The notes: generated from the sequence alone by a model not told the origin. DNA of 64,000 nt from Escherichia coli (GCF_036507355.1 NZ_AP027877.1), one strand, 5' to 3'. Positions 10,666 to 34,033 are shown, numbered from the stretch's first letter. A program made the numbers and translations.

Positions 10666-10845
10666 GCCTGTTATTTATCCTGTAAAAAAATATGTACACG
10701 AGAAATTACTATAAAAATTTGTAATATTAGTAAAACTCGTTATTTTTATGCATGTTTATATTCATCATACAATTATATAACCATTTCCCGGTATCGCTTT
10801 GCTTTAGCGAGAACTGGTCTTTTATTCGCACTCAGGAGTACATGT

Positions 10846-11607: not shown

Positions 11608-11743
11608 TTTTTAACCTTAACGAAGAGCTATATTAATAACGGCATCAGCGATAACCCGGTCGATAATAATTCAACTATCGAATGCAGGCGTATGATATGA
11701 CGTAATTTATTGTCACGAAGCTCGCCTTCGCAGGAGTTTAATT

Positions 11744-13081: not shown

Positions 13082-13105
13082 TTCCCCTTAATCCAGCAAA
13101 GATAA

Positions 13106-13143
13106 AAGCCAACCTTAAGAACTTAAGGTTGGCTTAATTTTGC
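13106..13143 (+). terminator. Rho-independent terminator after adiC
   Basis: Hairpin aagccaaccttaag-aa-cttaaggttggctt followed by T-rich tract. Confidence 0.65.
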
Positions 13144-13184
13144 TTTGCGAGCATATGCGCACTTTGTTCGATGGAAACACCGTG

Positions 13185-15493: not shown

Positions 15494-15502
15494 TTGAATC
15501 TG

Positions 15503-16594
15503 ATGCGTTTTCTGCGCCGACCAATATCGCTGCGCCAACGGCTGATATTGACCATCGGGGCCATTTTGTTGGTGTTTGAGCTGATCAGCGTCTTCTGGCT
15601 ATGGCATGAAAGTACCGAGCAGATTCAGCTGTTTGAGCAGGCGCTACGCGACAATCGCAACAACGATCGCCACATCATGCGTGAGATCCGCGAGGCGGTC
15701 GCCAGCCTGATTGTCCCCGGCGTCTTTATGGTCAGCCTGACGCTATTTATCTGCTATCAGGCGGTACGCCGCATCACCCGCCCGCTGGCGGAGCTGCAAA
15801 AAGAGCTGGAAGCGCGCACCGCCGACAACTTAACGCCCATTGCCATTCACAGCGCCACCCTCGAAATCGAAGCGGTGGTTTCGGCGTTGAACGATCTGGT
15901 CAGTCGCCTGACCAGCACGCTGGATAACGAAAGGTTATTTACCGCTGACGTCGCGCACGAACTGCGAACGCCACTGGCGGGGGTGCGTTTGCATCTGGAA
16001 CTGCTGGCGAAAACGCATCACATTGATGTAGCACCGTTAGTGGCACGGCTTGATCAGATGATGGAGAGCGTCTCCCAGCTGCTGCAACTGGCGCGTGCCG
16101 GACAGTCATTTTCTTCCGGTAATTATCAACATGTAAAACTGCTGGAAGATGTCATTCTCCCCTCGTATGACGAACTCAGTACCATGCTCGACCAGCGCCA
16201 GCAAACCCTGCTATTGCCAGAGAGCGCCGCCGACATCACCGTTCAGGGTGATGCAACCCTGCTGCGGATGTTATTGCGAAATCTGGTAGAAAATGCCCAT
16301 CGTTACAGCCCGCAAGGCAGCAACATTATGATTAAGCTGCAAGAAGATGGCGGAGCGGTCATGGCCGTTGAAGATGAAGGACCGGGTATTGATGAGAGTA
16401 AATGCGGGGAGTTGAGTAAAGCGTTTGTACGAATGGACAGCCGTTATGGCGGGATTGGTCTGGGGTTAAGTATTGTCAGCCGCATTACACAGTTGCATCA
16501 CGGGCAGTTTTTCCTGCAAAACCGGCAAGAGACTTCTGGCACGCGCGCCTGGATACGGCTGAAGAAAGATCAGTACGTGGCAAACCAGATATAA
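15503..16594 (+). CDS. basS: Sensor histidine kinase BasS (PmrB)
   Basis: ORF begins at a TTG at 15494; ATG at 15503 (MRFLRRPISLRQ) gives 363 aa; HAMP/HisKA/HATPase architecture. Confidence 0.93.
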   Translation: MRFLRRPISLRQRLILTIGAILLVFELISVFWLWHESTEQIQLFEQALRDNRNNDRHIMREIREAVASLIVPGVFMVSLTLFICYQAVRRITRPLAELQKELEARTADNLTPIAIHSATLEIEAVVSALNDLVSRLTSTLDNERLFTADVAHELRTPLAGVRLHLELLAKTHHIDVAPLVARLDQMMESVSQLLQLARAGQSFSSGNYQHVKLLEDVILPSYDELSTMLDQRQQTLLLPESAADITVQGDATLLRMLLRNLVENAHRYSPQGSNIMIKLQEDGGAVMAVEDEGPGIDESKCGELSKAFVRMDSRYGGIGLGLSIVSRITQLHHGQFFLQNRQETSGTRAWIRLKKDQYVANQI

Positions 16595-16659
16595 AGAAAG
16601 CTGCTGACCACCAGCACGCTGAACACGGTAGTTAAACTTTCATAAACACGGTTTTTCAT
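16570..16659 (-). CDS. pmrR: Small membrane protein PmrR (29 aa), antisense to the 3' end of basS
   Basis: Reverse strand translates to MKNRVYESLTTVFSVLVVSSFLYIWFATY*; not in the ORF track because it is below the size cutoff; overlaps the last 25 bp of basS. Confidence 0.85.
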   Translation of the reverse strand: MKNRVYESLTTVFSVLVVSSFLYIWFATY

Positions 16660-16773
16660 TGCACTCTCCTCCGTTAACCTGGAGGAGAGTATGCGCGTCA
16701 GAGATTAAGTGAACCTTAAGAGTTCAATTGTTGGTCTGATAAGACAGCGTCACATCAGGCCATCCGTTTCAGC

Positions 16774-18276
16774 TTATTCATCAATTCGCGGATGTTGCTG
16801 CACCAGGCGGGTACGTTTCGCCTGCAAATCGGCAATCTCGTGGTCAATATCATCGATTTTCTGCTCGATATTATCGTAATGCTCGACGAGAATTTCCTTC
16901 GCTTCCTGTATATCTGACGCCGCCGGTGTTGCACCTTTCAACGGACGATTTGCCGTCTCTTTCATGGTTACGCCGGTGATTAAACCAACCACCGCCACTA
17001 CCATCAGGTAATAGGCTGGCATCATCAGATTCTGCGAGCTTTCGACCAGCCAGGCCGCCAGTGTTGGCGTCAGACCGGCAACCAGCACCGAAATATTAAA
17101 TGCCGCCGCCAGCGCGCTGTAACGGATATGCGTCGGGAACATCGCTGGCAAGGTAGAAGCCATAACGCCCGTAAAGCAGTTAAGGATCACCGCCAGCATC
17201 AGTAACCCGGCAAAAATCAGGCCGATGACGTTACTGTTAATCAGAATAAACGCCGGGATCGCCAACACAAACAGGGCAACACTACCAAGTAGCACAAACG
17301 GACGACGGCCAAAACGGTCACTCAGCAAGCCCATCACCGGCTGGACAAACAGCATACCGATCATAATGGCGATAATAATCAGCACCCCGTGGTCTTCGGA
17401 GTAATGCAGGTTATGCGACAAATAACTCGGCATATAGGTCAGCAACATGTAGTAAGTCACGTTGGTGGCAATTACCAGACCAATACATGTCAACAGGCTG
17501 CGCCAGTATTTAGTGGCAATCTCTTTAAACGAGACTTTCGGGCCATCCTGCAAACCTTCGCGGTCGCCCTGTTCCAGTTTTTCAACATGCTGCTGGAACG
17601 CCGGAGTTTCTTCCAGCGCATGGCGCAGGTAAAGCCCGATAATCCCTAACGGCAGAGCAATAAAGAACGGAATACGCCAGCCCCAGTCGAGGAAGTTCGC
17701 TTCGCCGACAATGGTCGAAATTAACACCACCACGCCCGCACCCAGCACAAACCCGGCAATAGAACCGAAGTCCAGCCAGCTGCCCATAAAGCCACGTTTA
17801 CGGTCAGGGGAGTATTCCGCAACAAATATCGACGCCCCGGTATATTCACCGCCGACCGAGAAACCTTGTGCCATCTTACAGATCAACAGCAGAATCGGTG
17901 CCCAAATACCAATCGTGTCGTAGGACGGTATTAAGCCAATACAGAACGTACTGATCGACATAATCACAATAGTGATAGCGAGGATCTTCTGGCGACCATA
18001 TTTATCGCCCAACATACCAAAGAAGAGCCCGCCAAGCGGTCGAATCAGAAAGGGAACGGAGAACGTGGCAAGTGCAGCAACCATCTGCACGCTGGGGTCA
18101 GCCCCCGGGAAAAAAACTTTACCTAATGCGTAAGCAACAAAACCATAAACACCAAAATCGAACCATTCCATTGCATTACCCAGTGATGCTGCGGTAATGG
18201 CTTTACGCAGTTTACCGTCATCAATAATGGTGACATCACGAAGGGTAATCGGTTTTACTTTTTTCCTTTTCAGCAT
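16774..18276 (-). CDS. proP: Proline/glycine betaine:proton symporter ProP (MFS)
   Basis: ORF 16774..18309; start placed at MLKRKKVKPITLRDV, giving 500 aa; C-terminal coiled coil. Confidence 0.93.
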   Translation of the reverse strand: MLKRKKVKPITLRDVTIIDDGKLRKAITAASLGNAMEWFDFGVYGFVAYALGKVFFPGADPSVQMVAALATFSVPFLIRPLGGLFFGMLGDKYGRQKILAITIVIMSISTFCIGLIPSYDTIGIWAPILLLICKMAQGFSVGGEYTGASIFVAEYSPDRKRGFMGSWLDFGSIAGFVLGAGVVVLISTIVGEANFLDWGWRIPFFIALPLGIIGLYLRHALEETPAFQQHVEKLEQGDREGLQDGPKVSFKEIATKYWRSLLTCIGLVIATNVTYYMLLTYMPSYLSHNLHYSEDHGVLIIIAIMIGMLFVQPVMGLLSDRFGRRPFVLLGSVALFVLAIPAFILINSNVIGLIFAGLLMLAVILNCFTGVMASTLPAMFPTHIRYSALAAAFNISVLVAGLTPTLAAWLVESSQNLMMPAYYLMVVAVVGLITGVTMKETANRPLKGATPAASDIQEAKEILVEHYDNIEQKIDDIDHEIADLQAKRTRLVQQHPRIDE

Positions 18277-18539
18277 AGCTTTCCTCGCAGAGTTGGCCCA
18301 TTTCCGCAAACGCCAGAAAAATCAGCGCGACGGCCGCAAAAGGGGAGCGGGAATTGCAGGATGCAATCTCTGTAACAAGCGTAGCGGGTTTGCTTACACC
18401 CTCCGGTTAAGGAATGTACAATCAAACCAGTTGACGCCTGAATTGGGCAGTTAATGACCTTTTTACCCTACCAGCGTTTAAATTTGTGATCAACTTCACA
18501 CATGAATTTCGTTTAGGACTCATTGATGTAACTGATTAT

Positions 18540-19418
18540 TTACACTAAATTTACAGAGAAGATTTCCTCGAGCATTGCCCCCGCCAGACGCTGCGCTGAA
18601 CAGAGTCGTGGCATCCCCAGCGCGACAGTTTGCCAGCGTTGGGTCACTGACCAGCAAACGGGTTGTTTATCTGCCGTGGTCCACTTTCCCAGCCAACTTA
18701 AAAAATCAGCATGATCCCCGCCCGTCGGAACGGTCGAAGAGGCAAACCACTGATGGTAATAGTGACGCGTGGTCGGGGCCGCATTGATACTCTCTGCCAG
18801 ATGTTGTGTCGCTTTCACGCGCAAATCACCCAGCAACAACGCCACCGCTTGCGGGCTTCCCAGACGGCAGGCATCGCCAAATGCCCCCCAACGCAACTCT
18901 TCGAGAACGATAAAACAGCGCCCAGGCAACGACCAGGCGTTATACGCCCCAGCACGCCAGCGGGTAAAAATTTGCTCGCTCTGTTCACCTGCCTGCACCA
19001 GTAGGCCCCGTTGCGTTAACGCCTTTTCCTTCCAGCGACAACGGGCTGAAAACCACTCATACAAGGCGGCAATTTGCTGGGGGAGCTCCGGGAAAGCAGA
19101 GTGCTGGCGGTGATCCATTTTTTGCAGCAGCGCCAGATGTTGCGCGATCTGCGTCAGTGCCAGATGACCGGGATCCAGCATCGACGCCAGTTTTTCCACC
19201 AATGTCAAACGCAGGCTAAGCGGCGCATTTAACATTCCGCCGTTCGCCCATGTCTGAAGCTGCACGCGCGCAAGAAGTTCCTGCATCAGTCGTTCACGAA
19301 ACTGCTGCTGATGGGCTTGTGGAAGGCGGGCATCATCGCCCTGCGCCAGATCCACTAAAAAGCGCGGATGAACCGACTCCAGCACGCGACCGGGGCCGTC
19401 CAGTAACGTCTTGGTCAA
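18540..19418 (-). CDS. yjcZ: Uncharacterised protein YjcZ, partner of CrfC
   Basis: 292-aa ORF; 4-bp overlap with upstream crfC (operon). Confidence 0.85.
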   Translation of the reverse strand: MTKTLLDGPGRVLESVHPRFLVDLAQGDDARLPQAHQQQFRERLMQELLARVQLQTWANGGMLNAPLSLRLTLVEKLASMLDPGHLALTQIAQHLALLQKMDHRQHSAFPELPQQIAALYEWFSARCRWKEKALTQRGLLVQAGEQSEQIFTRWRAGAYNAWSLPGRCFIVLEELRWGAFGDACRLGSPQAVALLLGDLRVKATQHLAESINAAPTTRHYYHQWFASSTVPTGGDHADFLSWLGKWTTADKQPVCWSVTQRWQTVALGMPRLCSAQRLAGAMLEEIFSVNLV

Positions 19419-21643
19419 TATCGTTCTGCCGTGAAAAGTGTTTGAATATCATCGCGTAACAGCTGGGCGTCGGTGTAAATCCAGCCGTGAGTCATCACAG
19501 TCTGCTGCAATTGCTGCTGCATCAGCCTGACCACCGATTCATTTTGTTGACGCAGAGCCAGACTTTCGCGTAAACGCGTCTGTAATTCCGTCAAACATGA
19601 AGCGAACTCAGCGAAAAAAGTATTCATGCCTGCCGTAACAGATTCATCGACCTGCTCTGCCAGAACTTTAGCCATTTGTTGGCAATAGAGATCGACTTCT
19701 GCGCTTAATGCTCGTTGCAACACACTGTAATCAACCGTTTCTGTCGGGGATTTCTCATTTCCCCGTCCCCAGTCGGGCTGATTCAACCAGCGCGAAAAAG
19801 TCTCACGCACAACGCCTAAACGCGTGCTCTGCTCGTCCGTTGCTTCCTGGCGCGAAATGACTTCACTGAACAGCTGGCGAGTGTTGAAGTGGGGAACTGC
19901 GCCGTGAAAAACAGGAAAATGAAACCCAGGACGAAACCCTGACTCGCTCAATTCCATTTTGATTTGTTGCTCAATGGGGCGAATAACATCGGTTAACACC
20001 CGGCAAAGGGTGGATTCCAGCTCGGCAAAACGCAGCGTAAAGTCGCGACTGATGGTGTTCTGCGCCGTCTGTAACAGTGTCTCACAGCGGGTACGAATCT
20101 CGCTTAACGGCTCCGAATCATCCTGAAACAACGCGGCTAACTGCGCATTCAGCGCATCTTGCTGTTGACGCAGAAAGAGGTTGGCGGAGGTCAGGGCCAG
20201 CTCGATTTCATGTTTAATCTCGCCGCTCACCTGCGCCTGATTGAGTTGCAATAGCTGCAAACTTTCTTCGACCTGATGGATATTTTGCCGCAATTGTTCA
20301 CAAGCGACGTTTAACCCGTGCGCACGAAAATCCAGGTATTCCCGCGCCTGCTGCGCGTAATTCAACAGTTTATGCGCGGCAGATCGCAGAGCATACAACG
20401 AGGCGTTAGCATAAGCGGCATGAAGCAACGCCTGAATTGGCTGGGCGAACAGCGAATCTTCCCACAACTGATCGGCAGCATGACGAATATGTTCGAGGTC
20501 CGCCAGATCGGCATGACGCCAGCGCCTGCCGAGCGCGGCATGGGCAAAATCTTCCACCCAGCGTTGTTGCTCTGGCGCTGGTAACTTACCGTTGTTGGCT
20601 AACTCATGGCGCGCCCGATTCGCCAGGTAGCCCCACATCGACGACACCGGAAATATCTGCTGTGGCGTAATACAGCCTTTCATCAGCGTTCCGGAAATCA
20701 GTGCCCGCACCTGGTCGGCGTCGTCACTGTTACGATCCTGTTGATCGAACTTATTGACCAGCACATACAGCGGCACCGATTGCCCCACCGCCAAAATCGC
20801 CTCACGGACCTCTTCATCGGAGATCGATTTCAGTTGCGTATAATCCAGCACCGCCAGTACCGCCGAGGCGCGTGCCAGCTGCTGGTTAAGCATTTTTTGC
20901 AGATGCGGTTGCCCGGCTTCATTTGGCCCGGGGGTATCCAGTAACGTCAACTGACCGGGATAACTCTCCAGCCCCGCCAGATGGACAAACTCCACTTCAA
21001 TCACGGGAATATGCTCAATGGCGGCGTAAGCAGAAAAAGGAAAATCGACGTCCAGCGCCTTCGCCAGTCGCACCAAATCATTCAAACTTTTCAGACAATG
21101 AAAAATAGGCTGGGCACCCAGATAATATTTTTCGAAAGCGACGCCATTTTCGATCCGCTGCATAAGCGCACGCATATCTTTATCTATTTCCAGCACATCG
21201 GTCAGATGCTTAATATCGCAATCACGCAGGCGCTGTTGTAATTTTTGAATTAAACAATCGATTGGCGCGACATGTGAAAAATGCAGTACCGGTTCCTTTT
21301 GCCCGGGCGTATGGCGAATAAGCGTCGGCAGGGCAGTCATTGGGCGATTGCGATTAGGCAGAACCTCCGTACCAACAATGGCATTAATGGTGGTTGATTT
21401 CCCTGCTTTCATAGTACCGACAATCGCCAGCACCATTTCCAGTTGGGAAATTTTACGCAACTCATTATTCAGCATCGCGTGACGCTCGGCGATATTAGGC
21501 TGACTCCAGGGTAAAGCCAGTTGTGGCGCATCGTCTCCGGGTACAGAGAGAGGCATTTTTTCCAGTAACTGCAACTGTTGGCGAGAAAGCTGTAACAGGC
21601 GTTCAGCCTCCTGACTTAACTCATACAGGGTCTGTGTGTACAT
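19415..21643 (-). CDS. crfC: Dynamin-like GTPase CrfC (YjdA)
   Basis: 742-aa ORF; P-loop GTMKAGKST near N-terminus; long coiled-coil-rich C-terminal part. Confidence 0.9.
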   Translation of the reverse strand: MYTQTLYELSQEAERLLQLSRQQLQLLEKMPLSVPGDDAPQLALPWSQPNIAERHAMLNNELRKISQLEMVLAIVGTMKAGKSTTINAIVGTEVLPNRNRPMTALPTLIRHTPGQKEPVLHFSHVAPIDCLIQKLQQRLRDCDIKHLTDVLEIDKDMRALMQRIENGVAFEKYYLGAQPIFHCLKSLNDLVRLAKALDVDFPFSAYAAIEHIPVIEVEFVHLAGLESYPGQLTLLDTPGPNEAGQPHLQKMLNQQLARASAVLAVLDYTQLKSISDEEVREAILAVGQSVPLYVLVNKFDQQDRNSDDADQVRALISGTLMKGCITPQQIFPVSSMWGYLANRARHELANNGKLPAPEQQRWVEDFAHAALGRRWRHADLADLEHIRHAADQLWEDSLFAQPIQALLHAAYANASLYALRSAAHKLLNYAQQAREYLDFRAHGLNVACEQLRQNIHQVEESLQLLQLNQAQVSGEIKHEIELALTSANLFLRQQQDALNAQLAALFQDDSEPLSEIRTRCETLLQTAQNTISRDFTLRFAELESTLCRVLTDVIRPIEQQIKMELSESGFRPGFHFPVFHGAVPHFNTRQLFSEVISRQEATDEQSTRLGVVRETFSRWLNQPDWGRGNEKSPTETVDYSVLQRALSAEVDLYCQQMAKVLAEQVDESVTAGMNTFFAEFASCLTELQTRLRESLALRQQNESVVRLMQQQLQQTVMTHGWIYTDAQLLRDDIQTLFTAERY

Positions 21644-22044: not shown

Positions 22045-22380
22045 ATGTCATTACCACACTGCCCAAAATGCAACTCCGAATACACCTACGAAGATAACGG
22101 CATGTACATCTGCCCGGAATGTGCCTACGAATGGAACGACGCAGAACCTGCACAGGAAAGCGATGAGCTGATCGTTAAAGATGCTAACGGCAATCTGCTG
22201 GCTGACGGCGACAGCGTTACCATCATTAAAGATCTGAAGGTGAAAGGTAGCTCTTCGATGCTGAAAATTGGCACCAAAGTGAAAAACATCCGCCTGGTTG
22301 AAGGCGACCATAACATCGATTGCAAAATCGACGGTTTTGGTCCGATGAAACTGAAATCTGAGTTTGTGAAAAAGAACTGA
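22045..22380 (+). CDS. phnA: PhnA (YjdM), zinc-ribbon protein
   Basis: ORF 21898..22380 is over-extended; ATG at 22045 gives 111 aa ([30 protein letters not shown], CxxC...CxxC). Confidence 0.9.
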
Positions 22381-22392: not shown

Positions 22393-22551
<159 letters not shown>

Positions 22552-22607: not shown

Positions 22608-23051
22608 ATGCCGTTAAGTCCCTACATCTCTTTTGCCGGTAACTGTGCCGACGCGATTGCTTATTATCAACGCACATTGGGCGCGGAACTGCTCTATAAA
22701 ATCAGCTTCGGCGAAATGCCAAAATCAGCGCAGGACAGCGCCGAGAACTGCCCTTCCGGAATGCAATTTCCCGATACTGCCATCGCTCATGCCAACGTGC
22801 GTATTGCCGGAAGCGACATCATGATGAGCGATGCTATACCGTCAGGAAAAGCCAGCTACTCCGGTTTTACGCTGGTGCTCGATTCGCAACAGGTCGAAGA
22901 AGGAAAACGCTGGTTTGATAACCTTGCAGCTAACGGAAAAATCGAAATGGCCTGGCAGGAAACTTTCTGGGCGCATGGCTTCGGCAAAGTCACCGATAAA
23001 TTTGGCGTACCGTGGATGATTAATGTTGTCAAACAACAACCAACGCAATAA
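22608..23051 (+). CDS. phnB: PhnB (YjdN), glyoxalase/bleomycin-resistance fold protein
   Basis: ORF 22440..23051 runs through the REP cluster; ATG at 22608 (MPLSPYISFAGNCADAIAYYQ) gives 147 aa. Confidence 0.88.
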   Translation: MPLSPYISFAGNCADAIAYYQRTLGAELLYKISFGEMPKSAQDSAENCPSGMQFPDTAIAHANVRIAGSDIMMSDAIPSGKASYSGFTLVLDSQQVEEGKRWFDNLAANGKIEMAWQETFWAHGFGKVTDKFGVPWMINVVKQQPTQ

Positions 23052-23106
23052 TCCGCCGGGAGGCCCGCCCTCCCGCACTGTCATCGAATTCCCGTTAACT
23101 CTTCAT

Positions 23107-23146
23107 CTGTTAGTCACTTTTAATTAACCAAATCGTCACAATAATC
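23107..23146 (+). promoter_or_regulatory. Pho box (PhoB binding) of the phnC promoter
   Basis: ctgttagtcacttttaattaaccaaatcgtcacaataatc: CTGTnA-type direct repeats at about 11-bp spacing, upstream of phnC. Confidence 0.7.
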
Positions 23147-23183
23147 CGCCACGATGGAGCCACTTTTTTAGGGAGGCTCCAGC

Positions 23184-23972
23184 ATGCAAACGATTATCCG
23201 TGTCGAGAAGCTCGCCAAAACCTTCAATCAGCATCAGGCGCTGCATGCGGTTGATCTGAACATTCATCACGGTGAAATGGTGGCTCTGCTTGGGCCGTCG
23301 GGTTCCGGCAAATCCACCCTTTTACGTCACTTAAGCGGCCTGATTGTCGGCGATAAAAAACCAGAATGCCGCGTCGAACTGCTGGGCCGTACCGTCCAGC
23401 AAAATGGCCGTCTGGCCCGCGATATCCGCAAAAGCCGCGCCCATACCGGCTACATCTTCCAACAATTCAACCTGGTGAATCGCCTGAGCGTACTGGAGAA
23501 CGTGCTGATTGGCGCGCTCGGCAGCACGCCGTTCTGGCGCACCTGTTTTAGCTACTTCACCCGCGAGCAGAAACAGCGCGCGTTACAGGCGCTGACCCGC
23601 GTTGGCATGGTGCATTTTGCCCATCAACGCGTTTCCACCCTCTCCGGCGGCCAGCAGCAGCGTGTGGCGATTGCCCGCGCGCTGATGCAGCAGGCGAAAG
23701 TGATTCTCGCAGACGAACCGATCGCCTCGCTGGACCCGGAATCGGCGCGCATCGTGATGGACACCCTGCGCGACATCAACCAGAACGACGGCATCACCGT
23801 GGTCGTCACGCTGCATCAGGTGGATTACGCCCTGCGCTACTGCGAGCGCATCGTCGCCCTGCGTCAGGGGCACGTCTTCTACGACGGCAGCAGCCAACAG
23901 TTTGATAACGAACGTTTTGACCATCTCTACCGCAGCATTAACCGCGTCGAAGAGAACGCGAAAGCTGCCTGA
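23184..23972 (+). CDS. phnC: Phosphonate ABC transporter ATPase PhnC
   Basis: 262 aa; Walker [13 protein letters not shown] signature LSGGQQQR. Confidence 0.95.
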
Positions 23973-23996
23973 CATCCCCATCATTGAGGAAAACGA

Positions 23997-25013
23997 ATGA
24001 ACGCTAAGATAATTGCCTCGCTGGCCTTCACCAGCATGTTCAGCCTCAGCACCCTGTTTAGCCCGGCGCACGCCGAGGAGCAGGAAAAGGCGCTGAATTT
24101 CGGCATTATTTCAACGGAATCACAGCAAAACCTGAAACCGCAATGGACGCCGTTTTTACAGGATATGGAGAAGAAGCTGGGCGTGAAGGTCAACGCCTTC
24201 TTTGCCCCGGACTACGCGGGCATTATCCAGGGAATGCGTTTCAACAAAGTGGATATCGCCTGGTACGGCAACCTGTCGGCGATGGAAGCAGTGGATCGCG
24301 CCAACGGTCAGGTCTTCGCTCAGACCGTCGCGGCGGATGGATCGCCGGGTTACTGGAGCGTGTTAATCGTCAACAAAGACAGCCCGATCAACAACCTGAG
24401 CGATCTGCTGGCGAAGCGGAAAGATCTCACCTTCGGCAATGGCGATCCTAACTCCACCTCTGGCTTCCTCGTCCCCGGCTACTACGTCTTCGCCAAAAAC
24501 AATATCTCCGCCAGCGACTTCAAGCGCACCGTCAACGCCGGGTATGAAACCAACGCGCTGGCCGTCGCCAACAAGCAGGTGGATGTGGCGACCAACAACA
24601 CCGAAAACCTCGACAAGCTGAAAACCTCCGCACCGGACAAGCTCAAAGAACTGAAAGTGATCTGGAAGTCGCCGCTGATCCCAGGCGATCCGATCGTCTG
24701 GCGCAAGAATCTTTCCGAAACCACCAAAGACAAGATCTACGACTTCTTTATGAACTACGGCAAAACGCCGGAAGAAAAAGCGGTGCTGGAACGCCTGGGC
24801 TGGGCGCCGTTCCGCGCTTCCAGCGACCTGCAACTGGTGTCGATTCGCCAGCTCGCGCTGTTTAAAGAGATGCAGGGCGTGAAAAGCAATAAAGGACTGA
24901 ATGAGCAGGACAAGCTGGCAAAAACCACCGAGATTCAGGCGCAGCTGGATGACCTGGACCGCCTGAACAACGCGCTAAGCGCGATGAGTTCGGTGAGTAA
25001 AGCGGTGCAGTAA
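23997..25013 (+). CDS. phnD: Phosphonate ABC transporter periplasmic binding protein PhnD
   Basis: 338 aa; signal peptide; recognised PhnD. Confidence 0.95.
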   Translation: MNAKIIASLAFTSMFSLSTLFSPAHAEEQEKALNFGIISTESQQNLKPQWTPFLQDMEKKLGVKVNAFFAPDYAGIIQGMRFNKVDIAWYGNLSAMEAVDRANGQVFAQTVAADGSPGYWSVLIVNKDSPINNLSDLLAKRKDLTFGNGDPNSTSGFLVPGYYVFAKNNISASDFKRTVNAGYETNALAVANKQVDVATNNTENLDKLKTSAPDKLKELKVIWKSPLIPGDPIVWRKNLSETTKDKIYDFFMNYGKTPEEKAVLERLGWAPFRASSDLQLVSIRQLALFKEMQGVKSNKGLNEQDKLAKTTEIQAQLDDLDRLNNALSAMSSVSKAVQ

Positions 25014-25016
25014 ATC

Positions 25017-25104
25017 GTAGGTCGGATAAGACGCCCCGGCGTCGCATCCGACAATGTGCAGGCGTTGATGCCGGATGCGGTGCAAGCACCTTATCCGGCC
25101 TACA
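25017..25104. repeat. REP pair (BIME) inside the phn operon, between phnD and phnE
   Basis: gtaggtcggataagacgc...gatgccggatgcggtg...ccttatccggcctaca. Confidence 0.85.
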
Positions 25105-25118
25105 GACCGGAGCCAAAC

Positions 25119-25898
25119 ATGCAAACCATCACCATCGCCCCACCCAAGCGCAGCTGGTTCTCGCTTCTGAGCTGGGCCGTTGTTCTCGCCGTGTTGGTCG
25201 TCTCGTGGCAGGGCGCGGAAATGGCCCCGCTCACGCTGATTAAAGACGGCGGCAACATGGCGACTTTCGCCGCCGACTTCTTCCCGCCTGATTTCAGCCA
25301 GTGGCAGGATTACCTCACCGAAATGGCCGTCACGCTGCAAATCGCCGTCTGGGGCACCGCGCTGGCGGTGGTTCTCTCCATCCCCTTCGGCCTGATGAGC
25401 GCCGAAAACCTGGTGCCGTGGTGGGTTTACCAGCCCGTTCGCCGCCTGATGGACGCCTGCCGCGCCATTAACGAAATGGTCTTCGCCATGCTGTTCGTGG
25501 TCGCCGTCGGCCTCGGCCCGTTCGCTGGCGTGTTGGCGCTGTTTATCCACACCACCGGCGTGCTCTCCAAACTGCTTTCCGAAGCGGTGGAAGCGATTGA
25601 ACCCGGCCCGGTGGAAGGCATTCGCGCGACCGGCGCTAACAAGCTCGAAGAGATCCTCTACGGCGTGCTGCCGCAGGTGATGCCGCTGCTGATCTCCTAC
25701 TCCCTCTATCGCTTCGAATCCAACGTCCGCTCGGCGACCGTCGTCGGCATGGTCGGCGCGGGCGGGATCGGCGTCACGCTGTGGGAAGCGATTCGCGGTT
25801 TCCAGTTCCAGCAAACCTGCGCCCTGATGGTGCTCATCATCGTCACGGTCAGCCTGCTGGATTTCCTCTCTCAACGGTTGCGTAAGCACTTTATCTGA
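25119..25898 (+). CDS. phnE: Phosphonate ABC transporter permease PhnE (intact frame)
   Basis: ORF 25056..25898 begins inside the REP; ATG at 25119 (MQTITIAPP) gives 259 aa uninterrupted. Confidence 0.9.
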
Positions 25899-25918
25899 TT
25901 AGCGAGGCATTGATAGCT

Positions 25919-26644
25919 ATGCACTTGTCTACACATCCGACCAGCTACCCAACACGCTATCAGGAGATAGCCGCAAAACTTGAGCAGGAGCTTCGTCAAC
26001 ACTACCGCTGCGGCGACTATCTTCCCGCCGAGCAGCAGCTGGCGGCGCGCTTTGAGGTAAACCGCCACACCCTGCGCCGCGCCATCGACCAACTGGTGGA
26101 AAAAGGCTGGGTACAGCGCCGTCAGGGCGTCGGCGTGCTGGTGCTGATGCGCCCGTTCGATTACCCGCTCAACGCCCAGGCGCGTTTTAGCCAGAATCTG
26201 CTGGATCAGGGCAGCCATCCCACCAGCGAAAAACTGCTGTCGGTGCTGCGCCCGGCGTCTGGTCACGTCGCTGACGCGCTGGGGATAACCGAGGGGGAGA
26301 ACGTCATCCACCTGCGCACCCTGCGCCGGGTCAACGGCGTCGCGCTCTGTTTAATCGACCACTACTTTGCGGACCTCACCCTCTGGCCGACGCTGCAACG
26401 CTTCGACAGCGGTTCGCTGCACGATTTTCTGCGCGAGCAAACGGGAATTGCGCTGCGCCGCAGCCAGACGCGGATCAGCGCCCGCCGCGCCCAAGCCAAA
26501 GAGTGCCAGCGCCTTGAAATCCCGAATATGTCGCCGCTGCTGTGCGTGCGCACCCTTAACCACCGTGACGGTGAAAGCAGCCCGGCGGAGTATTCCGTCA
26601 GCCTGACGCGCGCCGACATGATTGAATTCACTATGGAGCACTGA
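25919..26644 (+). CDS. phnF: GntR-family repressor PhnF
   Basis: 241 aa from MHLSTHPTSYP; HTH plus UTRA domain. Confidence 0.92.
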   Translation: MHLSTHPTSYPTRYQEIAAKLEQELRQHYRCGDYLPAEQQLAARFEVNRHTLRRAIDQLVEKGWVQRRQGVGVLVLMRPFDYPLNAQARFSQNLLDQGSHPTSEKLLSVLRPASGHVADALGITEGENVIHLRTLRRVNGVALCLIDHYFADLTLWPTLQRFDSGSLHDFLREQTGIALRRSQTRISARRAQAKECQRLEIPNMSPLLCVRTLNHRDGESSPAEYSVSLTRADMIEFTMEH

Positions 26645-27097
26645 ATGCACGCAGATACCGCGACCCGCCAGCACTGGATGTCCGTGCTGGCGCACAGCCA
26701 ACCGACTGAGCTGGCAGCCCGCCTGAACGCGCTGAACATCACCGCCGACTATGAAGTGATCCGCACCGCCGAAACTGGTCTGGTGCAGATTCAGGCGCGG
26801 ATGGGCGGCACCGGCGAACGCTTTTTTGCCGGCGACGCCACGCTCACCCGCGCCGCCGTACGCCTGACTGACGGCACGCTCGGCTACAGCTGGGTGCTGG
26901 GGCGCGACAAACAGCACGCCGAACGCTGCGCGCTGATTGACGCGCTGATGCAGCAATCTCGCCACTTTCAAAACTTATCAGAAACTCTTATTGCCCCGCT
27001 GGACGCTGACCGTATGGCACGCATTGCCGCACGCCAGGCCGAAGTGAACGCCAGCCGGGTCGACTTCTTTACGATGGTTCGCGGAGACAACGCATGA
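26645..27097 (+). CDS. phnG: C-P lyase core complex subunit PhnG
   Basis: 150 aa; operon position. Confidence 0.93.
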
Positions 27098-27678
27098 CCC
27101 TGGAAACCGCTTTTATGCTTCCCGTGCAGGATGCCCAGCACAGTTTTCGTCGCCTGTTAAAGGCCATGAGCGAGCCGGGCGTGATTGTCGCCCTGCATCA
27201 GCTCAAACGCGGCTGGCAGCCGCTGAATATCGCCACCACCAGCGTGCTGCTGACGCTGGCTGATAACGACACGCCGGTGTGGCTTGCCGCGCCATTAAGT
27301 AACGATATCGTCAGCCAGAGCCTGCGTTTTCATACCAACGCGCCGCTGGTCAATCAACCGGAACAGGCGACCTTCGCGGTGACGGATGAGACGATTTCCA
27401 GCGAACAGCTCAACGCCCTTTCCACCGGCACCGCCGTTGCGCCAGAAGCGGGCGCGACGCTGATTTTACAGGTCGCCAGCCTGAGCGGCGGGCGCATGTT
27501 GCGCCTCACCGGTGCGGGTATTGCCGAAGAACGAATGATCGCTCCGCAGCTGCCGGAGTGCATTTTGCACGAACTCACCGAGCGCCCGCACCCGTTCCCG
27601 CTCGGCATCGACCTGATCCTGACCTGCGGCGAGCGCCTGCTGGCTGTTCCGCGAACCACTCATGTGGAGGTGTGCTGA
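27094..27678 (+). CDS. phnH: C-P lyase core complex subunit PhnH
   Basis: 194 aa; 4-bp overlap with phnG. Confidence 0.93.
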
Positions 27679-28742
27679 TGTACGTTGCCGTGAAAGGGGG
27701 CGAGAAGGCGATCGACGCCGCCCACGCCCTGCAAGAGAGCCGACGCCGGGGCGATACCGATTTGCCCGAACTGAGCGTCGCCCAGATTGAACAGCAGCTT
27801 AACCTCGCGGTAGATCGCGTGATGACCGAAGGCGGCATTGCCGACCGCGAACTGGCGGCGCTGGCGCTGAAACAGGCCAGCGGCGATAACGTCGAAGCGA
27901 TTTTTCTGCTGCGCGCCTACCGCACCACGCTGGCGAAGCTGGCGGTGAGCGAACCGCTCGACACCACCGGGATGCGTCTCGAACGGCGTATCTCCGCTGT
28001 TTATAAAGATATTCCCGGCGGCCAACTGCTTGGCCCAACCTACGACTACACCCATCGCCTGCTCGATTTCACCCTGCTGGCAAACGGCGAAGCGCCAACG
28101 CTGACCACCGCCGACAGCGAACAACAGCCGTCGCCGCACGTTTTCAGCCTGCTTGCGCGTCAGGGGCTGGCGAAGTTTGAAGAGGATAGCGGCGCACAGC
28201 CGGATGACATCACCCGCACGCCGCCGGTTTACCCCTGCTCACGTTCTTCCCGTTTGCAGCAGTTGATGCGCGGCGACGAAGGCTATTTGCTGGCGCTGGC
28301 CTACTCCACCCAACGCGGTTACGGGCGCAATCACCCGTTCGCGGGTGAAATCCGCAGTGGTTACATCGACGTGTCGATTGTGCCGGAAGAGCTGGGATTT
28401 GCGGTAAACGTCGGCGAACTGCTGATGACCGAGTGTGAAATGGTCAACGGTTTTATCGATCCGCCGGATGAACCACCGCATTTTACACGCGGCTACGGGC
28501 TGGTGTTCGGCATGAGCGAGCGCAAAGCGATGGCAATGGCGCTAGTCGATCGTGCGTTGCAGGCCCCGGAGTACGGCGAGCACGCGACAGGCCCGGCGCA
28601 GGATGAAGAGTTCGTGCTGGCGCATGCCGACAACGTCGAAGCCGCAGGCTTTGTCTCGCACCTCAAACTCCCGCACTACGTCGATTTCCAGGCCGAACTG
28701 GAGCTACTCAAACGTCTGCAACAGGAGCAGAACCATGGCTAA
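27678..28742 (+). CDS. phnI: C-P lyase core complex subunit PhnI
   Basis: Start placed at [13 protein letters not shown] (354 aa); TGATG overlap with phnH. Confidence 0.93.
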   Translation: MYVAVKGGEKAIDAAHALQESRRRGDTDLPELSVAQIEQQLNLAVDRVMTEGGIADRELAALALKQASGDNVEAIFLLRAYRTTLAKLAVSEPLDTTGMRLERRISAVYKDIPGGQLLGPTYDYTHRLLDFTLLANGEAPTLTTADSEQQPSPHVFSLLARQGLAKFEEDSGAQPDDITRTPPVYPCSRSSRLQQLMRGDEGYLLALAYSTQRGYGRNHPFAGEIRSGYIDVSIVPEELGFAVNVGELLMTECEMVNGFIDPPDEPPHFTRGYGLVFGMSERKAMAMALVDRALQAPEYGEHATGPAQDEEFVLAHADNVEAAGFVSHLKLPHYVDFQAELELLKRLQQEQNHG

Positions 28743-29580
28743 TCTGAGCGGCTACAACTTTGCCTACCTCGACGAGCAGACCAAACGCATGATCCGCCGC
28801 GCCATCTTAAAAGCGGTGGCGATCCCCGGTTATCAGGTGCCGTTTGGCGGGCGCGAGATGCCGATGCCGTACGGCTGGGGAACCGGCGGCATACAGCTTA
28901 CCGCCAGCGTGATTGGCGAAAGCGACGTACTGAAGGTGATTGACCAGGGAGCGGATGACACCACCAACGCCGTGTCGATTCGCAACTTCTTCAAGCGCGT
29001 GACCGGGGTAAACACCACGGAACGTACGGACGATGCGACGGTTATCCAGACGCGTCACCGCATCCCCGAAACGCCGCTGACCGAAGATCAGATCATTATT
29101 TTCCAGGTGCCGATCCCCGAACCGCTGCGCTTTATCGAGCCGCGCGAAACGGAAACCCGCACCATGCACGCGCTGGAGGAGTACGGCGTGATGCAGGTGA
29201 AACTGTATGAAGATATCGCCCGCTTCGGTCATATCGCCACCACCTACGCCTATCCGGTGAAGGTGAACGGGCGCTACGTGATGGACCCGTCGCCGATCCC
29301 GAAATTCGATAACCCGAAAATGGACATGATGCCTGCCCTGCAGCTGTTCGGCGCGGGGCGCGAAAAGCGCATCTATGCGGTGCCACCGTTTACCCGCGTT
29401 GAAAGTCTCGATTTCGAGGATCACCCGTTCACCGTTCAGCAGTGGGATGAGCCATGCGCCATCTGCGGATCGACCCACAGCTATCTCGATGAAGTGGTGC
29501 TGGATGACGCCGGAAACCGCATGTTTGTCTGCTCCGATACCGATTATTGCCGCCAACAGAGCGAGGCAAAAAGCCAATGA
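28735..29580 (+). CDS. phnJ: C-P lyase PhnJ (radical SAM-like, four-Cys motif)
   Basis: Start at MANLSGYNFAYLDEQTKR (281 aa); C-terminal CxxCxxxxC...C cysteines. Confidence 0.93.
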   Translation: MANLSGYNFAYLDEQTKRMIRRAILKAVAIPGYQVPFGGREMPMPYGWGTGGIQLTASVIGESDVLKVIDQGADDTTNAVSIRNFFKRVTGVNTTERTDDATVIQTRHRIPETPLTEDQIIIFQVPIPEPLRFIEPRETETRTMHALEEYGVMQVKLYEDIARFGHIATTYAYPVKVNGRYVMDPSPIPKFDNPKMDMMPALQLFGAGREKRIYAVPPFTRVESLDFEDHPFTVQQWDEPCAICGSTHSYLDEVVLDDAGNRMFVCSDTDYCRQQSEAKSQ

Positions 29581-30335
29581 ATCAACCGTTACTTTCGGTC
29601 AATAACCTGACCCACCTTTACGCGCCGGGCAAAGGCTTTAGCGATGTCTCTTTTGATTTATGGCCGGGGGAAGTGCTGGGCATTGTCGGGGAGTCCGGCT
29701 CCGGGAAGACCACGCTGCTGAAATCAATCTCCGCGCGCCTGACGCCGCAGCAGGGGGAAATTCACTACGAGAACCGTTCGCTGTATGCAATGAGCGAGGC
29801 CGACCGCCGTCGCCTGCTGCGCACCGAATGGGGCGTGGTGCATCAGCATCCGCTCGACGGCCTGCGCCGCCAGGTCTCAGCAGGCGGCAACATCGGCGAG
29901 CGGCTGATGGCGACCGGGGCGCGTCATTACGGCGATATTCGCGCCACCGCGCAGAAGTGGCTGGAAGAGGTGGAAATTCCCGCCAACCGGATCGACGACC
30001 TGCCGACCACCTTTTCCGGCGGCATGCAGCAACGTTTGCAGATTGCCCGCAACCTGGTGACGCATCCGAAGCTGGTATTTATGGACGAGCCAACCGGCGG
30101 GCTGGATGTGTCGGTGCAGGCCCGCCTGCTCGACCTGCTGCGCGGCCTGGTGGTGGAGCTGAACCTGGCGGTGGTTATTGTCACCCATGATTTAGGCGTC
30201 GCCCGCCTGCTGGCGGACCGTTTGCTGGTGATGAAGCAGGGGCAAGTGGTGGAGAGTGGGTTAACCGACCGCGTGCTCGACGACCCGCATCATCCGTATA
30301 CACAGCTGCTGGTGTCATCGGTTTTGCAGAATTGA
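29577..30335 (+). CDS. phnK: C-P lyase accessory ATPase PhnK (ABC-type)
   Basis: Start at [11 protein letters not shown] (252 aa); Walker [10 protein letters not shown]. Confidence 0.93.
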
Positions 30336-30338
30336 GCC

Positions 30339-30428
30339 GGTGCCGGATGCGGCGTAAACGCCTTATCCTGCCTACAAATGCGCTCCCCGTAGGTCGGATA
30401 AGACGCGTCAGCGTCGCATCCGACACCC
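30339..30428. repeat. REP pair (BIME) inside the phn operon, between phnK and phnL
   Basis: gccggatgcggcgtaaacgccttatcctgcctaca...gtaggtcggataagacgcgtcagcgtcgcatccgac. Confidence 0.85.
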
Positions 30429-30445
30429 GAACCACGAGGCGAAAA

Positions 30446-31126
30446 ATGATTAACGTACAAAACGTCAGTAAAACCTTCATCCTGCACCAGCAAAACGGCG
30501 TGCGCCTGCCCGTCCTCAACCGCGCCTCGCTCACCGTCAACGCGGGCGAATGCGTGGTGCTCCACGGCCATTCCGGCAGCGGAAAATCAACCCTGCTACG
30601 CTCGCTGTACGCCAACTATCTGCCCGACGAAGGGCAAATCCAGATCAAACACGGTGACGAATGGGTCGATCTGGTCACCGCGCCAGCGCGCAAAGTGGTG
30701 GAGATCCGCAAAACCACCGTTGGCTGGGTGAGCCAGTTTCTGCGCGTCATCCCGCGCATTTCGGCGCTGGAAGTGGTGATGCAGCCGCTACTCGATACCG
30801 GCGTACCACGTGAAGCCTGCGCCGCTAAAGCCGCGCGTCTTCTCACCCGCCTGAACGTGCCGGAACGCCTGTGGCACCTGGCTCCATCGACCTTCTCCGG
30901 CGGCGAACAGCAGCGCGTCAACATCGCCCGCGGCTTTATCGTCGACTACCCCATTCTGCTGCTCGACGAACCTACCGCCTCGCTGGACGCCAAAAACAGC
31001 GCCGCGGTGGTGGAACTGATTCACGAAGCCAAAGCCCGTGGCGCAGCCATTGTCGGCATCTTCCATGACGAAGCCGTACGTAATGACGTTGCCGACCGCC
31101 TGCACCCAATGGGAGCCTCTTCATGA
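30446..31126 (+). CDS. phnL: C-P lyase accessory ATPase PhnL (ABC-type)
   Basis: Start at [11 protein letters not shown] (226 aa); Walker [10 protein letters not shown]. Confidence 0.93.
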
Positions 31127-32259
31127 TTATCAATAACGTCAAATTGGTGCTGGAAAACGAAGTGGTACACGGTTCACTGGAGGTGCAGGACGGCGAAATC
31201 CGCGCCTTTGCCGAAAGCCAGAGCCGCCTGCCGGAGGCGATGGACGGCGAAGGCGGCTGGCTGCTGCCGGGGCTGATTGAGCTGCATACCGATAATCTGG
31301 ATAAATTCTTCACCCCGCGCCCGAAAGTTGACTGGCCTGCCCACTCGGCGATGAGCAGCCACGACGCGCTGATGGTGGCGAGCGGCATCACCACCGTACT
31401 GGATGCCGTGGCAATTGGCGACGTGCGCGACGGCGGCGATCGGCTGGAGAATCTTGAGAAGATGATCAACGCCATCGAAGAGACGCAGAAACGCGGCGTC
31501 AACCGCGCCGAGCACCGTCTACACCTGCGCTGCGAACTGCCGCATCACACCACGCTGCCGCTGTTTGAAAAACTGGTGCAGCGCGAGCCGGTGACGCTGG
31601 TGTCGCTGATGGACCACTCGCCGGGCCAGCGCCAGTTCGCCAATCGCGAGAAGTATCGCGAATATTATCAGGGTAAATACTCGCTCACTGATGCGCAGAT
31701 GCAGCAGTACGAAGAAGAGCAACTGGCGCTCGCCGCACGCTGGTCGCAGCCGAATCGCGAATCCATCGCCGCCCTGTGCCGCGCGCGACACATTGCGCTT
31801 GCCAGCCACGATGACGCCACCCACGCCCACGTTGCCGAATCCCACCAGCTTGGCAGCGTGATCGCCGAATTTCCCACCACGTTCGAAGCGGCAGAAGCCT
31901 CGCGCAAGCATGGCATGAACGTGTTGATGGGCGCGCCGAATATCGTGCGCGGCGGTTCGCACTCCGGCAACGTGGCGGCCAGTGAACTGGCACAGCTTGG
32001 CCTGCTGGATATCCTCTCTTCCGACTACTACCCCGCCAGCCTGCTGGATGCGGCGTTCCGCGTGGCCGATGACCAGAGCAACCGCTTTACGCTGCCGCAG
32101 GCGGTGAAGCTGGTGACTAAAAATCCGGCGCAGGCGCTTAATCTCCAGGATCGCGGGGTGATTGGCGAGGGCAAACGCGCCGACCTGGTGCTGGCGCATC
32201 GCAAGGGCAATCATATTCACATCGACCACGTCTGGCGTCAGGGGAAAAGGGTGTTCTGA
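31123..32259 (+). CDS. phnM: PhnM, amidohydrolase-family ribosyl-triphosphonate diphosphohydrolase
   Basis: 378 aa; 4-bp overlap with phnL. Confidence 0.93.
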
Positions 32260-32816
32260 TGATGGGAAAGCTAATCTGGTTGATGGGGCCGTCCGGCTCC
32301 GGGAAAGACAGCCTGCTGGCGGAACTCCGCCTGCGGGAACAGGCGCAGTTGCTGGTGGCGCATCGCTATATCACGCGCGACGCCAGCGCCGGAAGTGAAA
32401 ACCATATCGCCCTGAGCGAGCAGGAGTTTTTTGCCCGTGCAGGTCAGCAACTCTTCGCGTTAAGCTGGCATGCTAACGGCTACTATTACGGCGTCGGGCT
32501 GGAAATTGATCTCTGGCTGCACGCCGGATTCGACGTGCTGGTCAACGGCTCACGCGCCCATCTGCCGCAGGCGCGGGCACGCTATGCATCGGCGCTGCTG
32601 CCCATCTGCTTACAGGTGTCGCCAGAGATCCTGCGCCAGCGCCTGGAAAACCGTGGTCGTGAAAACGCCAGTGAAATTAACGCCCGGCTGGCGCGCGCCG
32701 CCCGCTATACTCCTCAGGATTGCCATACGCTCAATAATGACGGCAGCCTGCGCCAGTCGGTCGACACACTGCTGACGCTGATCCATCAGAAGGAGAAACA
32801 CCATGCCTGCTTGTGA
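32259..32816 (+). CDS. phnN: Ribose 1,5-bisphosphate phosphokinase PhnN
   Basis: 185 aa; P-loop GPSGSGKDS. Confidence 0.93.
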
Positions 32817-33237
32817 GCTTCGCCCGGCCACACAGTACGACACCGACGCGGTTTACGCGTTGATTTGTGAGCTAAAACAGGCGGAGTTTGACCATCACGC
32901 GTTTCGCGTGGGCTTTAACGCCAACCTGCGTGACCCAAACATGCGCTACCATCTGGCGCTGCTGGATGGCGAAGTTGTCGGTATGATCGGCCTGCATTTG
33001 CAGTTTCATCTGCATCATATCAACTGGATTGGCGAAATTCAGGAACTGGTGGTGATGTCGCAGGCGCGCGGCCTGAACGTCGGTAGCAAGTTGCTGGCGT
33101 GGGCAGAAGAAGAAGCCCGCCAGGCCGGGGCCGAAATGACCGAGCTTTCCACTAACGTGAAGCGCCACGACGCGCACCGTTTCTATCTGCGCGAAGGCTA
33201 CGAGCAGAGTCACTTCCGCTTCACCAAGGTGCTGTAA
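32803..33237 (+). CDS. phnO: Aminoalkylphosphonate N-acetyltransferase PhnO (GNAT)
   Basis: 144 aa; 14-bp overlap with phnN. Confidence 0.93.
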
Positions 33238-33238
33238 C

Positions 33239-33997
33239 ATGAGCCTGACCCTCACGCTCACCGGCTCCGGCGGCGCACAGGGCGTTCCGGCATGGGGCTG
33301 CGAGTGCGCGGCCTGCGCCAGAGCGCGGCGCTCGCCGCACTATCGCCGCCAGCCATGCAGCGGCGTAGTGAAGTTTAACGAGGCGATCACCCTGATCGAC
33401 GCCGGGCGGCACGATCTCGCCGATCGCTGGTCGCCAGGATCGTTCCAGCAGTTTTTACTGACGCACTACCATATGGATCACGTCCAGGGGCTATTCCCGC
33501 TGCGCTGGGGCGTGGGCGATCCGATCCCGGTCTACGGCCCGCCGGATGAACAGGGCTGCGACGATCTGTTTAAACATCCGGGCCTGCTTGATTTCAGCCA
33601 CACGGTGGAACCGTTTGTGGTGTTTGATTTGCAGGGGTTACAGGTCACGCCCCTGCCGCTCAACCACTCAAAACTGACCTTCGGTTATCTGCTGGAAACG
33701 GCACACAGCCGGGTGGCGTGGCTGTCTGACACCGCAGGCTTGCCGGAAAAAACGCTGAAATTTTTACGCAATAATCAGCCGCAGGTAATGGTGATTGATT
33801 GCAGCCACCCGCCGCGCGAGGATGCGCCACGTAATCACTGTGATTTAAACACCGTGCTGGCGCTGAATGAAGTTATCCGCTCGCCGCGGGTGATTCTGAC
33901 CCATATCAGCCACCAGTTTGATACGTGGCTGATGGAGAATGCGCTGCCGCCGGGTTTTGAGGCGGGGTTTGATGGGATGGAGATTGGGGTGGCGTGA
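33239..33997 (+). CDS. phnP: Phosphoribosyl cyclic phosphodiesterase PhnP (metallo-beta-lactamase fold)
   Basis: 252 aa; HYHMDH metal-binding motif. Confidence 0.93.
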
Positions 33998-34033
33998 TGA
34001 GTGTGCGCGCTGGGCCCCTCACCCTAGCCTACC

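Follow-up and report, generated by a model that had tools for sequence, protein, structure and literature searches.

The window analysed here, a stretch of 64,000 nucleotides (nt) of Escherichia coli DNA (GCF_036507355.1, NZ_AP027877.1), contains on its + strand (23184..33997) the phnCDEFGHIJKLMNOP operon, whose 14 genes encode a phosphonate ATP-binding cassette (ABC) transporter, a regulator and the carbon-phosphorus (C-P) lyase pathway. Two intercistronic gaps of this operon, phnD/phnE (D/E) and phnK/phnL (K/L), hold genuine E. coli repetitive extragenic palindromic (REP) elements, in each case as a single inverted pair resembling the bacterial interspersed mosaic element 2 (BIME-2). The D/E gap looks like a conserved hairpin position, where the pair probably stabilises the upstream mRNA, and the K/L gap looks like a permissive site, filled with repeats in some lineages. 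Gene limits were taken from the list of open reading frames (ORFs) and the K-12 gene ends; NCBIfam equivalog models match PhnC, D, E, F, K, L and M. The features are, in order:

23184-23972, + strand, phnC
23997-25013, + strand, phnD
25011..25013, + strand, phnD stop codon TAA, with the GTAG foot of the first REP 3 nt on and the local REP stem 7 nt on
25017..25052, - strand, REP 1 of the D/E gap, z2-like (GTAGGTCGGATAAGACGCC-CC-GGCGTCGCATCCGAC), hairpin of -20.0 kcal/mol, GTAG foot at 25017-25020
25053..25069, 17-nt head-to-head linker of the D/E pair, AATGTGCAGGCGTTGAT
25070..25103, + strand, REP 2 of the D/E gap, Y type (GCCGGATGCGGTGCAAGCACCTTATCCGGCCTAC), hairpin of -19.8 kcal/mol, CTAC foot ending at 25103
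25109..25121, + strand, phnE Shine-Dalgarno sequence GGAG (25109-25112), starting 5 nt past the end of the REP pair, and ATG (25119-25121)
25119-25898, + strand, phnE, intact, 259 amino acids
25919-26644, + strand, phnF
26645-27097, + strand, phnG
27094-27678, + strand, phnH
27678-28742, + strand, phnI
28735-29580, + strand, phnJ
29577-30335, + strand, phnK
30333..30335, + strand, phnK stop codon TGA, with the REP head 6 nt on
30342..30375, + strand, REP 1 of the K/L gap, Y type, hairpin of -16.2 kcal/mol, one stem mismatch at 30369 (T in the window, G in K-12), CTAC foot ending at 30375
30376..30388, 13-nt tail-to-tail linker of the K/L pair, AAATGCGCTCCCC
30389..30424, - strand, REP 2 of the K/L gap, z2-like (GTAGGTCGGATAAGACGCGTCAGCGTCGCATCCGAC), hairpin of -21.3 kcal/mol, GTAG foot at 30389, ending 11 nt upstream of the phnL Shine-Dalgarno sequence
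30436..30448, + strand, phnL Shine-Dalgarno sequence GAGG (30436-30439) and ATG (30446-30448)
30446-31126, + strand, phnL
31123-32259, + strand, phnM
32259-32816, + strand, phnN
32803-33237, + strand, phnO
33239-33997, + strand, phnP

The spacing of the junctions (in nt) is C/D +24, D/E +105, E/F +20, F/G 0, G/H -4, H/I -1, I/J -8, J/K -4, K/L +110, L/M -4, M/N -1, N/O -14 and O/P +1, so that D/E (105 nt) and K/L (110 nt) are the only sizeable intercistronic gaps of the operon. An initial annotation of this DNA had placed REP pairs in these two gaps, which was borne out, with coordinates right to 1-4 nt. It had also described the remaining junctions as overlapping; there is indeed no other sizeable gap (-14 to +24), but C/D and E/F are short gaps of 24 and 20 nt. 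The phnE gene is an uninterrupted ORF of 259 codons in the window and is frameshifted in K-12, and the transporter should therefore be functional in the window strain, unlike in K-12.

All four REPs are extragenic, each placed between a stop codon and the next start codon. They are imperfect palindromes of 34-36 nt, each with a GTAG/CTAC foot, a GATGCG head and an imperfect stem, and their predicted stem-loops, at -16 to -21 kcal/mol, all contain an internal loop of the AA/GC type. In the 64-kb window there are 9 exact copies of the 14-nt REP tail motif CTTATCMGRCCTAC, as against 0 in 100 dinucleotide shuffles; three of the four phn REPs contain it exactly and the fourth with 1 mismatch. A query made from the K/L gap matches a high number of sites, a median of 16-23 per E. 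coli genome. Motif count, copy number and predicted folds together argue that these palindromes did not arise by chance.

Each pair joins one canonical Y REP to one z2-like REP, whose interior (GTCGGAT...ATCCGAC vs GCCTGAT...ATCAGGC in the Z2 consensus) differs by two compensated base pairs; the two compensated changes were also seen when D/E REP 1 was aligned to the Y-l-Z2 model. With the BIME classes defined as summarised in PMC3333891, both gaps have the composition of BIME-2, a Y and a z2-like REP separated by 17 or 13 nt, but not its tandem copies, since there is one unit per gap in the window and in K-12. They are therefore BIME-2-like, or "atypical", units. BIME-1 was ruled out, given that no Z1-type REP is present and that the 17- and 13-nt linkers are too short for the L motif, and so was a site for integration host factor, as its sequence WATCAANNNNTTR was unmatched, by inspection, in both linkers. 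Only coding sequences are given in the RefSeq annotations of K-12 MG1655 and a K-12 derivative, which were checked for REP features; in the MG1655 numbering the phn elements are presumably next to REP325.

The Rfam model naRNA4 (RF02564) represents one Y-l-Z2 unit of the REP325 locus (PMC4550694). Its covariance score for the D/E pair (25020-25100) is 69.1 bits on the - strand, where the gathering score is 59.5, and 50.5 bits on the + strand, and the K/L pair, which is arranged tail-to-tail, stays under threshold at 30-36 bits. A discrete antisense naRNA4-like gene at D/E is unsupported, and the Rfam match just reflects the Y-l-Z2 repeat unit. A role at the level of DNA may nevertheless be considered, in which the pairs would serve as gyrase or HU sites that relieve transcription-induced supercoiling, or as nucleoid contacts by analogy with REP325/naRNA4. 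BIME-2/REP elements have been described as targets of gyrase and HU (PMC3333891, PMC4550694), the D/E pair scores above the gathering threshold, and an authentic REP325 locus lies 2.5 kb upstream. The phn pairs, however, are single units, where BIME-2 typically forms tandem arrays, the model match is antisense to phn on a strand without a promoter-like site, and the replacement of REPs by an unrelated repeat in many genomes (see below) speaks against a need for REP sequence as such; a DNA-level role is thus very improbable.

The REP325/naRNA4 locus itself occupies 22395-22546, between yjdM (22045-22380) and yjdN (22608-23051), with an naRNA4 match of 102 bits at 22398-22474 (+ strand) and part of a second unit at 22494-22543. 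The space between the two genes measures 227 nt in the window vs 657 nt, or six units, in K-12, and the window strain therefore carries about two Y-l-Z2 units. Further REP/BIME elements, all of them intergenic, are located at 3867-3961, 16730-16760, 46432-46580 (a cluster of three REPs) and 57011-57045.

In the phn mRNA, each pair is predicted to form two local hairpins or, alternatively, one long inter-REP hairpin. The fold spanning the D/E gap has a predicted energy of -51.5 kcal/mol (z -4.2) and that spanning the K/L gap -55.6 kcal/mol (z -6.6), and for neither gap was any of 200 shuffles as stable. A sequence scan found no U-tract terminator in either gap, and neither gap holds a consensus match to a sigma-70-like promoter; an intrinsic terminator and an internal promoter were rejected on these grounds, so that the REP pairs do not simply act as either.

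The first REP starts 3-7 nt past the phnD stop codon and 6 nt past the phnK stop codon. REPs at <=15 nt from a stop codon were reported to cause ribosome stalling and lower expression of the upstream gene (PMC12306157, citing Liang & Deutscher 2015), and both distances therefore lie within the published range for translational down-regulation. By analogy, a hairpin in the mRNA entry channel might stall the terminating ribosome, and trans-translation or mRNA cleavage would then lower PhnD and PhnK; the onset of the D/E hairpin at 0-17 nt past the stop codon across taxa would suit such a brake. Down-regulation of a periplasmic binding protein would, however, run counter to the usual stoichiometric need, and it is contrary to the higher phnCD transcript signal described below (PMC7657598, PMC10080781), which makes a translational brake unlikely.

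The two gaps were surveyed with allele-specific queries in 5,426 complete E. coli genomes, and both junctions are present in ~5,387 of them. At D/E, 3,873 genomes have the REP-pair allele and 1,506 (~28%) a BoxC-derived one; at K/L, 4,839 have the REP-pair allele and 546 (~10%) a BoxC-pair allele. BoxC was identified directly, as the allele of locus L004, CCCTCTCCCTTGAGGGAGAGGGTTAGGGTGAGGGG, is identical at 34 of 35 positions to TMECO no. 2 (Table 1 of PMC4666352), and it has been reported to have neither terminator nor promoter activity (PMC4666352). Further variants at D/E differ in length: the gap is 61-67 nt with a truncated single BoxC hairpin, 64 nt with an inverted copy, 125 nt with a pair and 139 nt with a (GGGAGA)n expansion, and one REP allele has lost 16 nt from its first REP. 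Among five sampled genomes, all three with BoxC at K/L also had BoxC at D/E, and the other two combined BoxC at D/E with REPs at K/L. Comparison of loci L004 and L007 showed that the D/E REP linker (25053-25072, AATGTGCAGGCGTTGATGCC) resembles the spacer of the BoxC allele, AATGCGCACGCTGATGCC, and that the K/L REP linker (30376-30388, AAATGCGCTCCCC) resembles the corresponding spacer CAATGCGCGCACCGCTCCCC. It looks as if REPs were swapped for BoxC cores, or the reverse, with the spacer retained.

The hexanucleotide (GGGAGA)n expansion of the BoxC-derived D/E allele was seen in E. coli O121 RM8352, where the gap reaches 139 nt, and in O103 ML775, and it acts like a variable-number tandem repeat within the operon. 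BoxC is also found at the end of the operon: a truncated remnant, GTGCGCGCTGGGCCCCTCACCCTAGCC, is located at 34003-34030, just past the phnP stop (33997), and its counterpart in K-12 is a full BoxC, TMECO no. 22, between phnP and yjdP (MG1655 4,314,285-4,314,320).

Sequence constraint was evaluated in five diverse E. coli genomes with REP alleles by comparing each gap with the adjoining coding DNA. In the D/E gap 3 of 105 columns are variable, vs 116 of 1204 in the coding flanks, which is ~3-fold less (binomial P = 0.007), and the three changes (an indel in a loop, a G-C pair turned into G-U and one base of the linker) all retain the predicted fold. In the K/L gap 7 of 110 columns vary, vs 137 of 1209 in the coding flanks, a difference that is not significant (P = 0.06); these changes cluster in the first REP, and some of them break the stem, including the T at 30369 of the window.

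The phn operon of the window is ~4% diverged from K-12, and the D/E gap lies in its longest difference-free run (343 nt, 24841-25183), whereas uniform divergence predicts only 6e-4 runs of that length. Around the K/L gap there is a single difference in 343 nt (30177-30519), and both REP gaps, together with ~100 nt of coding DNA to either side, match K-12 exactly or almost exactly. The pattern points to recombination in short patches around the gaps, or else to strong constraint, and REP and BoxC alleles might move between lineages in such short patches. The operon as a whole (22608-33997) is a divergent allele with 92-98% identity per gene to K-12, and its best match among the complete E. coli genomes reaches 96.8% identity across 12.5 kb. 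The flanks at 8000-20000 and 36000-48000 have 99.0-99.4% identity and yjdM 99.7%. The divergence forms a mosaic, in which runs of 343, 265, 263 and 232 nt are free of differences.

A scan across genera, with one genome per species and 80 loci, separated the two gaps further. The D/E gap measures at least 55 nt in all 40 loci with the phnCDE-F order, and it is more stable than shuffled sequence (z < -2) in 30 of these 40, with a median z of -3.7. By genus, the gap is structured in 18 of 22 at D/E vs 8 of 25 at K/L (Fisher P = 0.001). The D/E hairpins, with the onset close to the phnD stop given above, are unrelated in sequence: Kluyvera, Leclercia and Enterobacter have BoxC; Lelliottia, Citrobacter and Cedecea have enterobacterial REPs; others are Pseudomonas-type REPs; and Hafnia, Shimwellia, Photobacterium, Marinomonas and Marinobacterium each have a unique stem-loop. 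The K/L junction is nearly never overlapping and is mostly short and unstructured (median z -0.33). It is from this pattern that the gap after phnD appears to be a conserved hairpin position.

There was no named Escherichia outgroup among the 80 loci. One locus labelled Pseudocitrobacter faecalis DSM 27453 (QNRL01000011.1) carries arrays of BoxC in its two gaps (251 and 298 nt), and its phn genes have 91-96% nucleotide identity to those of the window, with 99% amino-acid identity in PhnL. This is too high for another genus and points to mislabelled Escherichia-like DNA or horizontal transfer; being a single locus of uncertain identity, it does not decide whether REP or BoxC is the ancestral state.

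It is possible, although doubtful, that both pairs are neutral passengers, that is, mobile or recombining repeats settled in the only two sites of the operon that tolerate insertion, with no significant effect on expression. Non-overlapping D/E and K/L gaps occur across Proteobacteria irrespective of repeats, the K/L gap being mostly short and unstructured; both gaps are polymorphic for unrelated repeat families (3,873 vs 1,506 and 4,839 vs 546 genomes), along with deletions, hexamer expansion and copy-number variants; stem-breaking changes accumulate in the first K/L REP; and phnK/phnL has no step in expression (PMC10080781). A neutral origin is harder to reconcile with a D/E gap that is structured in 18 of 22 genera from unrelated sequences and that varies ~3-fold less than its coding flanks by structure-preserving changes only, or with the phnD/phnE expression step present in one data set.

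Tentatively, selection may maintain a hairpin directly after phnD and not its sequence, with palindromic repeats acting as interchangeable "hairpin cassettes". If true, the REP/BoxC polymorphism would be a natural experiment on intra-operonic repeats.

Published expression data that bear on the gaps come from studies uncontrolled for REPs. In a W3110 derivative grown in a phosphate-limited fermentation, all of the reported phn genes rose 5-17-fold from 16 to 24 h (Table 1 of PMC10080781). In the interval from 24 to 48 h, in units that the table does not clearly define, phnC (8.93) and phnD (18.55) were still rising, vs values of 1.2 for phnF, -0.17 for phnG, 0.31 for phnI, 0.28 for phnK and 0.16 for phnL, and a range of -0.17 to 2.38 for phnF-phnN (Table 1 of PMC10080781). 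These values hint that transcript change has a step at phnD/phnE, with no counterpart at phnK/phnL. In another study of phosphate limitation, only phnC, phnD and phnN were differentially expressed among the phn genes (PMC7657598).

Transcribed REPs resist polynucleotide phosphorylase (PNPase) and RNase II and define steady-state 3' ends, as stated in PMC6061677 (citing Newbury 1987, Khemici & Carpousis 2004), where REPs are also linked to Rho-dependent termination. The phnD/phnE step fits attenuation of transcription as well as it does stabilisation, and partial Rho-dependent or BIME-associated termination in the gaps might lower polymerase flux in a stepwise manner. BIME-associated attenuation has been published (2001 work, cited in PMC6061677), the gaps amount to 105-110 nt of untranslated RNA, and in Photobacterium and Pseudomonas ANT_H4 the D/E hairpin is followed by a T-run, resembling a weak terminator. 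Yet the REP pairs of E. coli have no U-tract, and the gaps are almost fully base-paired and G-rich and should thus be poor Rho loading sites. Moreover, phnF-phnN were all induced 7-17-fold in the first interval (PMC10080781), so that read-through must be substantial, and attenuation as the principal role is rather improbable.

The balance is slightly in favour of the D/E pair acting as a classical REP stabiliser that raises phnCD above phnE-P. The REP pairs would be transcribed in the phn mRNA and fold as hairpins of about -20 kcal/mol, or as one inter-REP hairpin of about -50 kcal/mol; the D/E pair would then block 3'-to-5' exonucleases, possibly adding some transcription attenuation, and would uncouple translation across the junction. 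As a consequence the phnCD segment, encoding the ATPase and the abundant periplasmic binding protein, would accumulate above phnE-phnP. A stabiliser role at D/E is plausible because of an anatomy like that of malE-malF and hisJ-hisQ, the structure found across genera, the low variability and the RNA-seq step. The K/L gap is found in nearly all phn operons with or without a hairpin, and its REP pair is most likely just tolerated there as a passenger, any effect being small. The identity, anatomy, predicted stability, conservation and polymorphism of the elements are read from the genomes themselves, and the effects on mRNA and protein levels we infer.

The initial annotation had proposed that intra-operonic REPs act as mRNA stabilisers or decay barriers and could set the expression of transporter genes apart from that of lyase genes. 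For D/E the first part is upheld as plausible by the features just named, including the 18 of 22 structured genera. For K/L it is weak or negative, with 8 of 25 genera, P = 0.06, stem-breaking changes and no expression step. The proposed split does not match the positions of the pairs, as the D/E pair falls among the transporter genes, with phnCD on one side and phnE on the other, and the K/L pair lies between phnGHIJK and phnLMNOP. The annotation also left aside the translational effect predicted from the nearness of the REPs to stop codons, whose direction is opposite.

Several points weigh against a stabiliser at D/E. About 28% of E. coli genomes have a BoxC-derived element there and not a REP pair; no exact REP sequence can thus be essential, even if a hairpin persists in most BoxC alleles. 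The low D/E variability could result from recent recombinational spread or gene conversion among REPs, and not from selection. The effect reported for REPs within 15 nt of a stop codon is opposite in sign to stabilisation (PMC12306157). The strain with the phnD/phnE step was engineered and mutagenised, and the units of its table are not clearly defined (PMC10080781). Finally, 3' ends, half-lives and REP deletions for phn were not found in the literature searched, and neither the full-text search, which did not extend to the original phn sequence papers, nor the naRNA4 and RepRanger supplements yielded a study of REP function in phn.

REPs within operons are a textbook means of achieving unequal expression from one transcript, especially of a binding protein vs membrane components in ABC-transporter operons, and both the kind of element and its proposed role were already known; the original phn sequence papers reportedly noted REPs, the same REPs are present in K-12, and the phn case adds no new principle. 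The modest additions made here are that REP and BoxC alleles replace each other at both gaps, that a hairpin after phnD is conserved across genera and that the REPs lie close to stop codons. The replacement and the post-phnD hairpin together provide a cheap, well-defined system for distinguishing selected regulators from tolerated passengers. The phn case would also be relevant to engineering or quantifying C-P lyase, as the subunit ratios of phnCD, phnE-K and phnL-P may vary by gap allele.

Among known systems, malE-malF and hisJ-hisQ are the classical intercistronic REP stabilisers, in which a binding-protein gene is followed by a REP and then by a permease gene. The malE-REP-malF and hisJ-REP-hisQ arrangements are reportedly described as intercistronic stabilisers in work of Higgins from 1982, Stern from 1984 and Newbury from 1987. 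The phnD/E pair likewise lies between the binding-protein and permease genes of one operon, its hairpins are stable and lack a U-tract, and upstream mRNA would be expected to exceed downstream mRNA. It is unlike them in that the ATPase gene phnC also precedes the REP, and in that the REP is only 3-7 nt from the stop codon. Transcription attenuation associated with BIMEs is said to have been described by Espeli, Moulin and Boccard in 2001. The phn REP pairs resemble that case in being located within a transcription unit, but the phn gaps have no obvious rut-like sequence and attenuation in them is putative.

With BIME-2 and REP325 (naRNA4) the phn pairs share the Y plus z2-like composition, the short linker and the alternating orientation, whereas the D/E pair is a single unit with its model match antisense to phn and the K/L pair is tail-to-tail. 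Both first phn REPs are within the distance limit of the 15-nt REPs of Liang & Deutscher, for which nrdAB is the example (PMC12306157), but there the predicted sign, unlike that of a stabiliser, is less PhnD and PhnK. The BoxC/PIT/TMECO triplex-motif repeats (PMC4666352) occupy the same two gaps and are, like the REPs, palindromic, intergenic and hypervariable; they are unrelated to REPs in sequence, and their polypurine/polypyrimidine blocks can form intrastrand triplexes.

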